From: a virus
IMG/VR virus record: IMGVR_UViG_3300005918_000012
Length of the DNA stretch: 64,000 nt
Reading direction: 5' to 3' (one strand)
Below are positions 11,051 through 39,546 of this stretch, piece after piece; the first letter of the stretch is position 1, and each line of letters starts with the position of its first letter. The notes under the pieces were generated by a model. The model had not been told where the DNA came from, made no database searches, and worked only from the letters and a program-made list of their open reading frames with translations. Made by a program: the position numbers and the translations under genes.

Positions 11051-12313
11051 ATGTCAGTTATATGTCCGTATTGTGGAAAAGAGTTTAAGGGAGATAAATT
11101 AAACTCCCGTCATTTATCAAAATGCAATCCTGCTTTAAAAGTTCCTGTTGAACCTTGTCTTTGTGGCCATGTCTCTACATCCTTAACTCAAATGAAAAGG
11201 CATAGAAAGAAATGTGAGGTTTGGCAAAATAGAGATAAGAAACAAGTAGCTCTGCAGCGTCAAGAAAAAACTGTAAAAGATAAATATGGGGTGAGGAATA
11301 TACGACAGGTTCCAGAATTAGAAGAGAAACGATTACAAACAATCCGGGGTAAGTATGGTGCAGATAATGTTTTTTGTAAAGAATCCTCAATTTTTGAAAA
11401 GGTTCAAGAATCCTTAGTAGGGAAACGTAAAGGTTTAAAAGGGAAAGATAATCCTTTTGCTTGGGATTCAACTAAAGAAAAAATAAAAAAAACAATGCAG
11501 GAAAGTTATGGTGTAGACAGTCCTCAACAATCTCAAGAAATCCGGGATAGAACTAAAAGTACAAATTTAGAACGCTATGGGTTTGAGTGTTTGCTGTCTG
11601 ATCCTGTTATAAGGGATCGGATAAAAGAGACATGTAAGGTTAAATATGGAGGTCCAGCTCCATCCTGTTCTTCTGAAGTCCGTGATAAACAAACAAAAAC
11701 AAATCTAAAATGTTGGGGTGTTCCTTGGACAGCTATGCATCCTGATATCCGTCAAAAACAATTAGAGACGATGAAAGAACATTATGGGTCTCATTTCTTT
11801 GCCTCGGAAGAAGGGAAGGCTGAAATTCGTCGTGTTATGATGGAACGGTATGGTGTCGAATTTCCTGGAGCAATGGTTGGGCATTGGGAAAAAGCACTGG
11901 CTACTTTTAAGAAAAATTATCCCAATACGGCATATCCTGGTTTATTGGCAGGACGAGGTGGCCCTAATATGCTTGAACGTAGAATACACCAGTTAATCCC
12001 TGATGCTATTTATACAGGGGATGGTAGTTTTTGGCGTTGGTTGCCTTTATTAGGGCATTTTAAAAATCCTGACTTTATTTTTCCCGGTCCAGATCCAAAT
12101 CATCCTATGAGGAATGTGACTAAGGTCGTGGAAGCCTTTGGATCTTATTGGCATTCTCGGATATTTACAGGTAAATCGAATTTTAAGCATGAGCAAGAGT
12201 TAATAGATTCTTATGCAGGTATTGGTTTTGATTGTTTGATTATCTGGGAAGATGATGTAAAGTCAGATATTGAATCTGTTCGTACTCGGTTGGTAGAATT
12301 TGTGGGAGTCTGA
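11051..12313 (+). CDS. Free-standing putative homing endonuclease (Zn fingers + 'KYG' repeats + Vsr/DUF559-like PD-(D/E)XK domain)
   Basis: CPYC..H..C and CLC..H..C fingers. About 8 repeats of 'K-x-T-x-x-(E/K)(K/R)YG'. C-terminal 'KNPDF...VVEAFGSYWH...GFDCLIIWE'. AT-richer than its flanks. Confidence 0.75.
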   Translation: MSVICPYCGKEFKGDKLNSRHLSKCNPALKVPVEPCLCGHVSTSLTQMKRHRKKCEVWQNRDKKQVALQRQEKTVKDKYGVRNIRQVPELEEKRLQTIRGKYGADNVFCKESSIFEKVQESLVGKRKGLKGKDNPFAWDSTKEKIKKTMQESYGVDSPQQSQEIRDRTKSTNLERYGFECLLSDPVIRDRIKETCKVKYGGPAPSCSSEVRDKQTKTNLKCWGVPWTAMHPDIRQKQLETMKEHYGSHFFASEEGKAEIRRVMMERYGVEFPGAMVGHWEKALATFKKNYPNTAYPGLLAGRGGPNMLERRIHQLIPDAIYTGDGSFWRWLPLLGHFKNPDFIFPGPDPNHPMRNVTKVVEAFGSYWHSRIFTGKSNFKHEQELIDSYAGIGFDCLIIWEDDVKSDIESVRTRLVEFVGV

Positions 12314-21500: not shown

Positions 21501-22544
21501 ATGACCGATGAAACGAAACCAGAAGAAGCAAAACCAGCAGTTAAACCCGTCCCAGTTCCTCTAGGCATCGGGCTCGATATCGGAACTATGAATATTGTTG
21601 CTGCCCGTCGTGGGGGGAATGGCATTCAATCCAAACGGATGCGGGATGTATTCATCAGTTTACCTCTGACAGCCAAGAAGATGTTGAAATTGTCTGATAC
21701 CAGCTTTGTTGAGCGGGAAGATGACGTTTTGATTCTAGGAGACGCAGCTCTGGAAATGGCTAATGTTTTTGGCTCTCAACCTCGACGACCACTTTCAGAA
21801 GGAATCATTTCAGCTAGTGAAGTGGATAGTCTGGAGATTCTCGGATTACTTATCAAGAATGTTCTGGGAGAACCCCGAACAGAAAAAGAGCATTGTTACT
21901 TTTCTGTTCCGGCAGTTCCAGTTGATTCTGATAGAGATGTTATCTATCACCGAGGAGTTTTTGAACGTATTGTTTCAGAGTGTGGTTATACCCCTCATGC
22001 AGCCAATGAGGCTATGGGGATCGTATACTCTGAGACAGCTAAAGAAGGATTCTCTGGGATCGGTATCTCCTTCGGCTCAGGGATGACCAACGTGGCCTTG
22101 TCCATCAATACTATTGAAGGTTTGACGTTCTCTGTGTCACGAGGCGGTGATTGGATTGATATCGGTGCAGCCGGCTCTGTAGGTCAAACACAAGCTCGGA
22201 TATGTGCCTTGAAAGAAAAGGGTTTTGATTTAACTAAACCTATGGGTCGGGAACAAGAAGCTTTGGCATTCTATTATAAATCGGCCATTGATTATGCTTT
22301 GGATAAGATTGAAGAACGGTTCAAGTCTATTCAGAATCAATTCTCTCTGTCTAAGCCTATTCCTATTGTGATTTCTGGTGGTACAAGTAAAGCTGGTGGC
22401 TTCATGGATTTCTTTACCGAAGTTTTTGAGAAACGTCGGAAGAAGTTCCCTATTGAAGTTTCTGAGTTACGACATGCCAAAGAACCCCTAAATGCTGTAG
22501 CTTACGGGCTGCTGATTCAAGCTATCCAAGAACACGAGGATTAA
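21501..22544 (+). CDS. Actin-like (MreB/MamK/ParM superfamily) ATPase
   Basis: Phosphate-1 'GIGLDIGTMN', connect-1 'NEAMGIV', phosphate-2 'GISFGSGMTN', 'GGDWID', adenosine 'VISGGTS', connect-2 'PLNAVAYG'. Confidence 0.9.
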   Translation: MTDETKPEEAKPAVKPVPVPLGIGLDIGTMNIVAARRGGNGIQSKRMRDVFISLPLTAKKMLKLSDTSFVEREDDVLILGDAALEMANVFGSQPRRPLSEGIISASEVDSLEILGLLIKNVLGEPRTEKEHCYFSVPAVPVDSDRDVIYHRGVFERIVSECGYTPHAANEAMGIVYSETAKEGFSGIGISFGSGMTNVALSINTIEGLTFSVSRGGDWIDIGAAGSVGQTQARICALKEKGFDLTKPMGREQEALAFYYKSAIDYALDKIEERFKSIQNQFSLSKPIPIVISGGTSKAGGFMDFFTEVFEKRRKKFPIEVSELRHAKEPLNAVAYGLLIQAIQEHED

Positions 22545-25858: not shown

Positions 25859-26308
25859 ATGCCCTTGTACCAATATCAATGTGGTTGCGGACTCAGATTT
25901 GAGAGTCAGGGAAGTATGGATAAACATGCAGACCCGAAAGAATGCCCGGACTGTGGAGAAATGGCTGAACGTCAGATGCCTGAAACGGTAGCTGGGGTTT
26001 TTAGTCAAGAAGTTTCTGGCCCTATTCCTCAGAACACAGGGATTTCAAGTATAGACACTCACATTGATCGAGTCATTGGACAGTCGGCTGAACAAGGCCG
26101 TAAAGCTCATGTGGTTCGTGTGGATACCAAGAAAGAGCTGCTTAGGAACAACCCGGATGCAACTGGATATGACATTACACAAACTCCTGATGGAGAATTC
26201 ACTTTGATGTCTAAAGACCAAAGGAAAGCTCGAGAAGCTGCTTTGGCTGTCAATAATAAGGCTATGAACGCCATAGAACAGGAGAGGGATAAAACCACTC
26301 CAAAATAA
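25859..26308 (+). CDS. FmdB-family zinc-ribbon protein (second copy)
   Basis: MPLYQYQCGCGLRFE...CPDCGEMAERQM. Confidence 0.85.
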   Translation: MPLYQYQCGCGLRFESQGSMDKHADPKECPDCGEMAERQMPETVAGVFSQEVSGPIPQNTGISSIDTHIDRVIGQSAEQGRKAHVVRVDTKKELLRNNPDATGYDITQTPDGEFTLMSKDQRKAREAALAVNNKAMNAIEQERDKTTPK

Positions 26309-26316
26309 TTACTAGG

Positions 26317-26460
26317 CCACAAAGGCCGTGGAAAATACATACCGACCGAAACACCGACCTATCTTTTGAGCTTTAAAACCGCCGTTGGCTGGAGAGACAG
26401 ACGAATGAACCGATAAACGAACGATTCAATTTGAGCTGAAACTCCGCAACGACTTTGTGG
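26317..26460 (+). ncRNA. Candidate structured RNA/cis-element, copy A (leader of the sheath gene)
   Basis: Outer stem ccacaaag..gtgga / tccgc..ctttgtgg, two (NNAY)7 tracts each followed by TTTGAGC, and an inner hairpin with a bulged U. Confidence 0.6.
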
Positions 26461-26486
26461 AAGAAACTAAAACAAGAGGTGTTCAA

Positions 26487-37127: not shown

Positions 37128-37247
37128 CCATTTTTGGGTTTCGTTATATTGCTTATATTGCCCGTAAGAGTGAGGGTTAGAAATTTATGACTCTCCCTTC
37201 ACCTGTTAAATAGGTGTGGATCGAAACCGTAGATGGAGGTCTTTATA

Positions 37248-38084
37248 ATGCCGAATCTTGATAACAACACAGCAAACACCGGAGTAGGTGGAACATCGTA
37301 TATGTACGATTACGGGACAAGCCCGAACACCAGAACTGCGGTTAGCCAGAAAGTTCGTATTCTGACACCTCATGTTGGAAATACAACTACGATGGCTCAG
37401 ATGGGTGTGCTGTCTCAATTTAACCCCTCACAAAGCAGAACTGTTGAGCCTGTACGTGGTATAGGTTTCGGGGACAAGGTTTCCGAGCTGGTACCTTCCG
37501 TAACAGAACCGACAACTGGTAACTTTGAACGAGCACTCTTATACCTGTGTAACTTGTGGCAAGCCACTGGTTATGCTTCTGGTGTAGATGGCCCTGTTCG
37601 TTCCTTAGCTCATCACAAATGGCCTTTCGATGTTGAACAGCAAGTCGTGTTCAGTTCATTGGCTGATGAGGATCTAGGCGTTGCAAACATAGGTACTGGA
37701 AATGATGCCGGTACTTTCGATGGTGGTGTTAGCCAAGTCAATTACGGCAAGGTTACTCCAAATGAGAGCGTTACTGTTCCTGGTAATGGCGATCAAGGAC
37801 ATTCAGCCATCATTACAGTATACGAAGCCTGCTGGTTCAATAGCTGGTCAACCACTTTTGCCAAAGACTCTGGCCTTATTATGGAATCTGGTGATGTGAC
37901 CGTTACTGACGTACATGACTTTGCTTCTATCTATGGTGAGTTCATGGCTACTGGTAATGACCCAACGGTCGGACAACTTGGTTCCATTCGATATGCCGAA
38001 TCAGGCTTCGATGTAGCCGGTGTTGGAGGCCGAGTAAACGTAGGTGGTGAAGGCCAAGGACTCGTAGCTTTACAACAACCATAA
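37248..38084 (+). CDS. Tail tube protein
   Basis: 'GVLSQFNPSQSRTVEPVRGIG...ELVP' and 'TVYEACWFNSWSTTF...IMESGDVTVTDV' tube pattern. GGAGG SD before the ATG at 37248. Lies between sheath and chaperone/TMP genes. Confidence 0.85.
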   Translation: MPNLDNNTANTGVGGTSYMYDYGTSPNTRTAVSQKVRILTPHVGNTTTMAQMGVLSQFNPSQSRTVEPVRGIGFGDKVSELVPSVTEPTTGNFERALLYLCNLWQATGYASGVDGPVRSLAHHKWPFDVEQQVVFSSLADEDLGVANIGTGNDAGTFDGGVSQVNYGKVTPNESVTVPGNGDQGHSAIITVYEACWFNSWSTTFAKDSGLIMESGDVTVTDVHDFASIYGEFMATGNDPTVGQLGSIRYAESGFDVAGVGGRVNVGGEGQGLVALQQP

Positions 38085-38125
38085 ATCCATACTTTACTCT
38101 AACTGGGTAAAGTACAGGTAAACCT

Positions 38126-38277
38126 GGGAACAATCCAGCAGCCTGTTAAAACCGACATACTGACTGATAGACAAAAATTTTGAGCTTTTTACCTCCCCTC
38201 TTGGGATGGTTAGACAAATAAACTGACTGACTAACATGCTCATCTTGTGCTATCTAGGGCTGCTAAGGTTGTTTCCC
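38126..38277 (+). ncRNA. Candidate structured RNA/cis-element, copy B (leader of the tail chaperone gene)
   Basis: Outer stem gggaacaatccagcagcc / ggctgctaaggttgtttccc, two (NNAY)6 tracts followed by TTTTGAGC and TTGTGC, and an inner hairpin with a bulged U. Confidence 0.6.
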
Positions 38278-38301
38278 TTTACAGAAGGGAAATACGAATA
38301 A

Positions 38302-39546
38302 ATGGAACAGATTACACTTGATGCTCTGGAGAGTGCCCTCGCCCCTATCGAAGCCATCGGTAAAAGTGAGATTACTTTCAATGTAAACGGGTCGGACTCG
38401 AATACTATCGTGACGCTACGGATGCTTCTTCCAGAAGAAGGAATCATGGCTCAGAGGTATGCTTCGGAGGTCTTAGATGATAAGAATCAGAAAAGCCACG
38501 ATGCTTTGGAGTATCTGGAACGGTTCAAGATTGGCCTTCTTTCTTATTCTCTGGTGGCTATAGGTCCTCTCGATCTTCATGATGTTAAATACATTGAGAC
38601 AGGGGAGAAACTAGAGACAGGAGTAGCCATTAAGGAACCTACACATATTGCTATGCGTAGACTACTCCTTCGATGGACTCAGGATATCCGAACTCGGATG
38701 TTCAACAAACACTCTGAATTATTAACCAGAGTCGAAATGGCTGCCGAGAAAGCTATTGAGTTCGACCCTGTTGATCTAGCTCTTGAGATTGAAAGAGTTG
38801 AGAAACGTCTTGAAATGTTAAAGACGGCTCAGGAACAAGATCCAAATGCTGCTCCGTCCATTATTCGGGATCAGGTTAAAGACATTGTTAAAATGGATAA
38901 AATGGATTCTCAAGGTCGTCGAGAAGCCGTTGATAAATTGAGGGATAAACAGGCCGGTATAGTTACACCACAGGCGGAAGAACCAGTAGCCTCTGAGCAA
39001 GCTCCCGAGCAAGCTCCTGTAAAAGAGTCTTTTTATGAAGATGTTGGCACACCTCCTCCTGAACAAGAACCACCCCAAGCTCAACCAGAACCACTCCAAG
39101 CTCAACCTGAACCTCAAACTGCTCCCCAACCTACTCCACAAGCTCCGCCAGCATACCCAGATCAGTCGTTTGTTGATACAGGGGATACTGATGGGATGTT
39201 AGCTGCTGTAGAGGCTGAGAACCAGCGTTTGCTGGCTGCTCGTGCCGGAACTTTACCACCTGCTCCCGGGGCTATGAATGCAATGAGGGCAGAAAAGGTA
39301 GCCCAACAAGCACCTCACTTGGCTGCCCGAGTAGTAAGTGAAGAACTGCAATCTGAGGAACTCCAGATATTACAAGCTACTCGTAAAGCAATGGCCGAGC
39401 CTACAGAGAAGCTAGGAGATGTTGATGTTTTCAAAGCACCTACGGAAACCTTGGATCGTCGTCCCCCTGCTGATGCTCCCGTTAGATCGGCTGCTATAAA
39501 TAAATCTAACAATCCTCGGTTCACTCCAGTTAAAAAAGGTTTGTAA
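38302..39546 (+). CDS. Putative tail assembly chaperone with a long Pro/Gln/Glu-rich tail
   Basis: Position between tube and tape measure. N-terminal 'IVTLRMLLPEE...LERFKIGLLSYSLVAI'. Confidence 0.55.
   Translation: MEQITLDALESALAPIEAIGKSEITFNVNGSDSNTIVTLRMLLPEEGIMAQRYASEVLDDKNQKSHDALEYLERFKIGLLSYSLVAIGPLDLHDVKYIETGEKLETGVAIKEPTHIAMRRLLLRWTQDIRTRMFNKHSELLTRVEMAAEKAIEFDPVDLALEIERVEKRLEMLKTAQEQDPNAAPSIIRDQVKDIVKMDKMDSQGRREAVDKLRDKQAGIVTPQAEEPVASEQAPEQAPVKESFYEDVGTPPPEQEPPQAQPEPLQAQPEPQTAPQPTPQAPPAYPDQSFVDTGDTDGMLAAVEAENQRLLAARAGTLPPAPGAMNAMRAEKVAQQAPHLAARVVSEELQSEELQILQATRKAMAEPTEKLGDVDVFKAPTETLDRRPPADAPVRSAAINKSNNPRFTPVKKGL

Follow-up and report, generated by a model that had tools for sequence, protein, structure and literature searches.

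Translational ON riboswitches, such as the add adenine riboswitch, are arranged so that the 3' strand of the P1 helix is the anti-SD, and a closed P1 leaves the ribosome site free. To our knowledge, very little has been learned about how huge phages (>200 kb) regulate their genes, and we know of no riboswitch-like or protein-gated leader that has been assigned to their virion-assembly genes. The kind of control discussed here, i.e., leader-mediated control of translation by alternative SD sequestration, is already known. For example, TRAP, which recognizes GAG/UAG repeats, brings the trpE leader into a fold with a sequestered SD, according to the references given in PMC4347634. These are the studies of the trpE leader of Bacillus subtilis by Du & Babitzke 1998 and Babitzke et al. 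1994/1995, as cited in that article. In phage Mu, the small zinc-binding protein Com opens a translation-inhibiting structure of mom by binding nearby RNA, and the site that it binds is one hairpin loop motif, CC-N2-3-GAG (PMC6483171).

The leader described here lies in a stretch of viral DNA of 64,000 nucleotides, the whole of which was analysed and is called the window. It is found in the gap 38085-38301, between an ORF for a 283-aa protein (37233-38084) and an ORF for a 414-aa protein (38302-39546, + strand), the latter being the gene that is presumed to be regulated. From the sequence and its conservation, we suggest, with a probability of roughly one half, that this cis-acting 5' leader of ~170 nt (about 38120-38301) is a factor-gated bistable switch that acts on the translation of the chaperone-like gene. 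The genes that follow the 38302 gene are probably under the same control.

The 414-aa protein is found on a 402-kb contig, its relatives are on IMG/VR viral contigs of up to 536 kb, and a search of GenBank phage DNA gave no match to the window. Therefore, the element belongs to an uncultured huge phage. A first single-protein scan of IMG/VR and a scan of GTDB genomes returned no relative, and a scan of IMG/VR with a 14-base DNA pattern gave >111 matches that were chance-like and were left out of the analysis. The relatives keep the order VIT/VWA protein, 283-aa protein, gap of ~215 nt, 414-aa protein and 387-aa protein. Though their proteins are 37-78% identical, the gap can be aligned across them. 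Pfam and PHROGs gave no match for the 283-, 414-, 387- and 1099-aa proteins, and PDB sequence searches returned nothing. Elsewhere in the window, this huge phage encodes an actin-family protein of 347 aa (21501-22544), which is a full-length match to Pfam Volactin (PF25216) with an E of 8e-76. The structural region also contains a 420-aa protein (11051-12313) with DUF7487 and homing-endonuclease PHROGs (E 4e-24).

The first-pass annotation had called the gene at 38302 a chaperone gene, and structure prediction agrees with this. Genes for tail assembly chaperones lie between those for the tube and the tape measure, and a programmed frameshift is common in them. An AF2 model of the 414-aa protein, built from 27 homologues, has a pLDDT of 82-94 over approximately residues 30-150. 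Its residues 8-142 match the HK97 tail assembly chaperone 2ob9_A with a Z of 8.0 and an rmsd of 4.1 A over 106/107 residues, and the next-best structural row has a Z of 5.0. Foldseek gave a probability of 0.82 for the chaperone-like domain but an E of 0.32. The modelled structure supports an N-terminal domain with the HK97-type tail assembly chaperone fold, and the domain is followed by a coiled coil and then by a tail rich in Pro. A homologue of the 283-aa protein, 40% identical, is annotated as "virion structural protein" in the cultured Tunturiibacter phage Tunturi_5, where it is encoded downstream of the tail sheath gene with two ORFs between. The AF2 model of the 283-aa protein was of low confidence (pLDDT 28.5) and gave no usable fold.

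There are two copies of the element in the window, and the one upstream of 38302 is referred to as copy B. All parts of copy B are on the + strand. Its outer stem, of 18 bp and bulged, is formed by 38126-38144 (GGGAACAAUCCAGCAGCCU) and the complementary 38256-38277 (AGGGCUGCUAAGGUUGUUUCCC), and is interrupted by one bulged U and a small internal loop. The 5' side of this stem has a switching part and a constant part. The switching part, P1a (GGGAA) and P1b (CAAUC) at 38126-38135, pairs with 38267-38277 and is similar in sequence to the SD region, and the constant part, P1c (AGCAGCCU, 38137-38144), pairs with GGGCUGCU at 38257-38264. Arm 1 (38149-38172) consists of six NNAY units, AAAC CGAC AUAC UGAC UGAU AGAC, and units 5-6 (GAUAG, 38166-38170) double as the 5' strand of P2. 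It is followed on its 3' side by UUUUGAGC (38178-38185), which is part of box 1 (UUUUGAGCU, 38178-38186), a UUGNGCU-like box that is present in nearly all relatives, L128 being an exception. The central hairpin P3 (ACC-UCCC / GGGA-U-GGU, 38191-38210) has a bulged U at 38207. Arm 2 (38212-38235) again has six NNAY units, AGAC AAAU AAAC UGAC UGAC UAAC, and after it UUGUGC is found at 38245-38250. Box 2 (CUUGUGCUAUC) spans 38244-38254 and supplies, with CUAUC in its 3' half, the 3' strand of P2. P4 is formed by UGAGC (38181-38185) and GCUCA (38238-38242). Downstream of the core is the shared switching strand GGUUG-U-UUCCC-UUU (38267-38280), whose partner is 38126-38135 in the open form or 38284-38294 in the closed form. 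In the closed form, 38270-38280 (UGUUUCCCUUU) pairs with 38284-38294 (GAAGGGAAAUA), and this hairpin covers the likely SD, AAGGGA (38285-38290), 12 nt upstream of the ATG at 38302. The AAGGGA in GAAGGGAAAUA is the only SD-like sequence before this ATG. Every feature that had been listed in the first-pass annotation, i.e., the outer stem, the arms, the boxes and the hairpins, is present where it had been placed.

These features are far beyond what is expected by chance. Within the 64 kb, six NNAY units in a row are found only at 26395, 38149 and 38212, all on the + strand, and TTTTGAGCTTTN2-3ACC occurs only in the two copies of the element, with 0 expected. The fold of 38085-38320 has a z of -4.78, and 0/200 shuffles are as good. 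A covariance model, R1, was seeded with the window and one relative, L112, using the outer stem of the first-pass annotation plus the inner helices. A second model, R2, was rebuilt from the 10 best R1 hits with copy-B leaders only, and 46 loci were searched. R2 detects the element upstream of the chaperone gene in 20 distinct contigs, which are all the reachable relatives, with E values from 1e-47 to 7e-4, and it has no match in 17 unrelated control loci (about 200 kb).

In the R2 alignment, 89% of the cells are paired vs 37-58% when the partners are slid, a percentage that leans somewhat upward, like those of the single helices and the counts of compensatory pairs, because the alignment was fitted to the structure of the model. 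Compensatory changes are found at 25/35 pairs vs 5-11 when slid. With the same upward lean, the proportion of paired cells is 91% for P1a/b (helix 1; 8/10 pairs compensatory), 86-88% for P1c (helices 2 and 3; compensatory changes such as GGCGAC/GUCGCC in L128), 96% for P2 (GAYAG from arm 1 paired to CURUC, the last bases of box 2; U-A, C-G and U-G exchange), 88.5% for P3 (5/7 pairs compensatory) and 81% for P4, which is well supported only in the clade of the window. Double changes in P1 are also seen in plain alignments, where CAAUC/GGUUG becomes CAGC/GCUG or CGGCC/GGCCG and AGCAGCC/GGCUGCU becomes GGCGAC/GUCGCC. Unfitted MAFFT alignments with RNAalifold, of 22 divergent leaders and also of their 3' parts, recovered only 3-4 pairs of P3 and the SD hairpin. 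This poor recovery is due to register errors in the alignments, and covariance models were therefore used.

Rfam 15 has 0 matches for the window and five relatives, and when E values up to 10 were allowed for 38000-38400, just three matches of chance level (13-14 bits) appeared. A 2023 catalogue of >10,000 viral RNA candidates (PMC10690425) leaves tail genes unmentioned outside its supplements, which may list the leader. The leader is a real, conserved and apparently undescribed cis-regulatory RNA.

The repeats could in principle be operator half-sites that are read in duplex DNA, as part of a promoter/operator array with the conserved -10-like box at its 5' edge or as the site of a DNA-binding protein. 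However, 25 base pairs persist through two-sided changes, which is not required of sites in duplex DNA. The period of 4 bp is also off the helical repeat, and the strand bias of the repeats is strict. Because of the compensatory changes in particular, we consider a DNA-level reading to be very unlikely.

The box itself, GGGTAAAGT (38105-38113, + strand), is a candidate extended -10 box and start of the leader, with GGTAnnnT as its conserved part. A GGTAnnnT box precedes 15/20 of the related leaders, 5-45 nt from the stem, and similar boxes are found in other intergenic gaps of the window, 16/17 of them on the + strand. The -10-like box that had been proposed to start a transcript is thus real and conserved, but no -35 was found with it that would speak for a promoter. 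We find no terminator after the upstream gene in the gap 38085-38301. Judged from these motifs, a promoter of the leader's own at the GGGTAAAGT box is plausible but unproven, and read-through transcription from the upstream gene is possible. Directly after the upstream stop codon is a hairpin, ACUUUAC..GUAAAGU (38087-38113), which in L112 is ACUCUAC..GUAGAGU, with one compensatory change. Since the box is the 3' half of this hairpin, it may act at the RNA level too.

A long imperfect duplex in an intercistronic gap, without a terminator before it and with a hairpin directly after the upstream stop codon, could also be an RNase III-type processing or stability site. Cleavage in the outer stem would then part the upstream message from the operon downstream and decide whether the anti-SD stays on the mRNA. 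There are precedents for RNase III sites in the lambda N leader and in the intercistronic sites of T7. However, we know of no RNase III site that encloses large conserved single-stranded repeat arms, and the arms found here set the leader apart from the known sites. Cleavage also needs no SD-like 5' strand, yet this strand is conserved. Processing of this type is an improbable explanation of the leader.

The evidence for a switch is found where the outer stem meets the SD. We folded 22 distinct leaders from -190 to +15, with and without the SD and the start codon held single-stranded, which mimics a bound 30S. The MFE structure is the closed form with the SD hairpin in 17/22 leaders and the open form in 5/22. 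Forcing the SD to stay single-stranded moves the anti-SD bases of this hairpin onto the 5' strand (-170 to -183) in most leaders of the set, and in those that re-pair the open and closed states are 0.2-8.5 kcal/mol apart. There is no re-pairing of the 5' strand in L140 (15.2 kcal/mol) and L148 (10.9), and it is partial in L150 (10.2). Pairing of the SD in a local hairpin, 8-13 bp long, is seen in 20/20 aligned relatives, and in 20/20 the two helices overlap by 8-13 nt on the shared strand. Whereas the outer stem covaries strongly, covariation of the SD hairpin, seen at its outer pairs, is moderate, with 81% paired vs 45-62% when slid and 7 compensatory pairs, on a side of the alignment that was not fitted to that helix. 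The duplex between the 5' strand and the anti-SD beats its own shuffles in 18/20. In addition, the SD of the 38302 gene is the most base-paired among 43 gene starts of the window (P 0.85 vs a median of 0.42). The 5' strand effectively repeats the SD region, and in L115 GGGAAAUAAC is found in both.

Thus, the mutually exclusive SD-sequestering hairpin that had been proposed is borne out by the shared strand in 20/20 relatives, by the covariation of both helices and by the re-pairing when the SD is freed. The leader has two mutually exclusive conserved helices, one of which occludes the ribosome site. The claim of a switch is backed by both evolution and thermodynamics, since the helices covary, share a strand and are matched in energy within each sequence (e.g., ON/OFF duplexes of -12.8/-13.4, -17.6/-17.6 and -18.5/-18.8 kcal/mol). 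We regard the leader as a convincing bistable expression platform, which may switch in vivo.

A platform of this kind could work without a trans factor. The near-isoenergetic folds of a hard-wired attenuator would fix a low rate of initiation relative to the abundant upstream product, or act kinetically during transcription. The balance of ON and OFF energies in each relative agrees with this, and with its 5' strand transcribed first, the open form might arise during transcription. Phage genes after the tube gene are needed in far lower amounts, which agrees as well. However, a simple hairpin would be enough for such an attenuator. It leaves the conserved core of ~120 nt, with its arms, boxes and bulged-U hairpin, unexplained, and also copy A, which is without such wiring of the SD. 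We see hard-wired attenuation as possible but unlikely.

It is the core that points to a factor. Unpaired and conserved in it are the GAY triplets of the two arms, CUUGYGCUGUC, GRUGG and a (Y)AGAY after each helix. GAY triplets are found in all relatives, with the consensus GAYRGA at at least 90%, GRUGG is also kept at at least 90%, and the most conserved block of the family is CTTGYgCTgTC of box 2. The strict period of 4 nt is limited to the clade of the window and several others. In the L138 clade, there are four to six GAC/GAU triplets per arm with spacers of 3-9 nt. The arms are 24-35 nt long across the relatives, and their spacing varies while the triplets persist. The adenines of the arms are predicted to be unpaired with a P of 0.59 vs 0.40 for the other arm bases. 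In the whole of a 381-kb and a 436-kb genome, the strict GAY-repeat pattern is found only in these leaders, and the backwards pattern has 0 matches.

Several other readings of the repeats were considered and rejected. An arm-arm duplex of tandem G.A pairs (GGAC/CAGG type) does not fit, as the first unit base in low-GC members is often a pyrimidine (UGAC, CGAC), giving Y.Y mismatches. A leader peptide from the conserved NUG in GRUGG would have frames of 2, 6, 11 or more codons, which are unconserved. Low-GC members have neither CsrA (GGA) nor Hfq (ARN)n motifs, and a DGR or codon-based reading is at odds with a period of 4, not 3. As a separate observation, the leader of L138 has at 2330-2380 an extra bulged-U hairpin, CCUCCCC..GGGGGAUGG, 5' of the 5' strand of the outer stem, as do those of L146, L149 and L154. 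The leader of this clade opens with a full hairpin-arm unit, consistent with an origin by tandem duplication.

A core closed by P1 could instead bind a small molecule or an ion, and the ligand would stabilize P1 and expose the SD. The topology is that of a riboswitch, i.e., a 5' strand, a conserved core and a 3' strand that is the anti-SD; many unpaired nucleotides are conserved, and P1 covaries. However, arm lengths of 24-35 nt and a varying triplet spacing are unlike a fixed ligand pocket. The genes are for virion assembly with no metabolic link, and no Rfam family matches. Because the spacers vary and the short triplets persist, we favor multi-site recognition by a protein over a small-molecule pocket, and a riboswitch in the strict sense appears quite unlikely. 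The approximately six repeats per arm suggest a reader that is hexameric or ring-shaped.

The second copy of the element, copy A, is at 26309-26486 on the + strand, before the gene for a 1771-aa protein (ATG 26487). The first-pass annotation had treated the two as copies of the same element, and R2, which was built from copy-B leaders alone, does recover copy A, with none in the controls. Copy A of the window matches R2 at 26316-26475 with an E of 0.024, and copy A of L127 matches with an E of 1e-4. Since this match is weak, the two copies are distant paralogues. Generally, R2 detects one strong copy per genome plus the weaker copy A. In both copies, a UUGNGCU box follows each of two NNAY-periodic arms, and between the arms is a C-rich/G-rich hairpin with a bulged U. 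The likeness of the inner hairpins noted earlier, with the bulged U before GG, is also seen (ACCUCCC..GGGA-U-GGU in copy B vs ACCGCC..GGC-U-GG in copy A). Like copy B, copy A has UUUGAGCU boxes, and the two share a string of 16-17 nt (26364-26380). Unlike copy B, it has no extended outer stem that competes with an SD hairpin; in 3/4 sequences inspected, the partner of its SD is instead the 3' end of arm 1. The overall fold of copy A has a z of just -1.4. In its MFE structure, 26349-26354 pairs with 26478-26483 (AACACC/GGUGUU), and the latter belongs to the SD region of the 1771-aa gene. In copy A of L126 (3400-3590), a CACCUCUU/AGAGGUG pairing is found, and here too the SD is wired to the repeat arm.

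Directly upstream of copy A, in 4/4 genomes, is the gene for a protein of 149-154 aa with an N-terminal Zn_ribbon_8 (CxxC..CxxC). These genes are at 25859-26308 in the window, 2799-3248 in L127, 1045-1494 in L165 and 2922-3386 in L126. The Zn-ribbon protein is a candidate RNA-binding regulator. R2 gave no leader in LR745208.1 or Tunturi_5, both of which have 283-aa homologues. Since the leader is missing from these more distant genomes, it appears to be restricted to a clade. In LR745208.1 (485 kb; L169 3378-4559), an ORF with a GIY-YIG-like N-terminus lies directly after the 283-aa homologue, in the position of the leader.

We propose the following mechanism for the factor-gated switch. As folding and the comparison of relatives show, two mostly unpaired repeat arms, two UUGNGCU boxes, P2 and P3 make up a sensor core, which is closed by the constant P1c. 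UUUCCC in the 3' strand of P1a/b is also the anti-SD, pairing either with the 5' GGGAA, so that the ribosome site is free, or with the SD region, so that it is blocked. The free RNA would be mostly in the blocked form, which is predicted as the MFE in 17/22, usually by just 0.2-8.5 kcal/mol. A trans-acting factor would shift this balance, most likely an oligomeric RNA-binding protein that reads the ~six single-stranded repeats of each arm as a TRAP-like ring.

As to the direction of control, we lean slightly towards activation, where binding would lock the closed core, the outer stem would zip fully and translation would be ON. This is because a repressor would be largely redundant if the default is OFF, and because of the topology of translational ON riboswitches. 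In the opposite direction, binding would compete with P2, whose 5' strand is two of the repeats; TRAP acts in this way on the trpE leader. It is not evident how a signal from occupied arms would reach P1a/b, since P1c, P2 and P3 fit both states.

It is also conceivable, though doubtful, that one phage-encoded oligomeric protein, e.g., the 149-aa Zn-ribbon protein, reads the GAY repeats of both leaders and turns copy A ON and copy B OFF. In copy A, the SD would be freed from the end of arm 1 and the downstream gene would be ON. On copy B, the protein would be in competition with P2 and the closed core, and the chaperone operon would be OFF. If true, this two-way control would time tail assembly in huge phages at the post-transcriptional level, using a new repeat code.

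The three-strand switch of copy B is unusually clear, with an SD mimic, an anti-SD and an SD, and it has a sensor domain of short periodic repeats. Such repeats point to an RNA-binding factor whose rule of recognition is simple and can be decoded. If the factor-gated switch is confirmed, huge phages would be adjusting their tail components, in stoichiometry or in timing, at a post-transcriptional stage. The leader would then be a new RNA family for Rfam and a compact, portable ON/OFF module for translation.

For a small zinc protein that opens an occluded start, Com and mom of Mu appear to be the closest phage precedent. Here, too, the start of a late phage gene is buried in structure, and a conserved Zn-ribbon gene adjoins copy A. 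Unlike the target of Com, the leader has repeat arms and not one loop motif, and the Zn-ribbon candidate is not a Com homologue.

In topology, the closest analogue would be the translational ON riboswitches. As in these, the folds are nearly isoenergetic, and the 3' strand of P1 alternates between P1 and the SD helix. The leader is different in that its core is much larger, its repeat arms vary in length, it precedes virion-assembly genes and it has no match in Rfam.

As a working system, the TRAP-controlled trpE leader is the analogue that we would place closest. In both, short purine-A triplets are present as single-stranded RNA, long-range refolding decides on the SD hairpin and one repeat-bearing segment overlaps a helix strand, which here is a strand of P2. 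The trpE leader has 11 G/UAG repeats with spacers of 2-3 nt, whereas the leader described here has GAY repeats, about 6 + 6, with spacers of mostly 1 nt. Measured against a TRAP leader of 9-11 GAG/UAG repeats that are 2-3 nt apart, its repeats are GAY/NAY, with spacers of 1 nt in the clade of the window and 3-9 elsewhere. Unlike in trpE, the repeats are held in two arms inside a closed stem, and the leader belongs to a huge phage, not to a trp operon.
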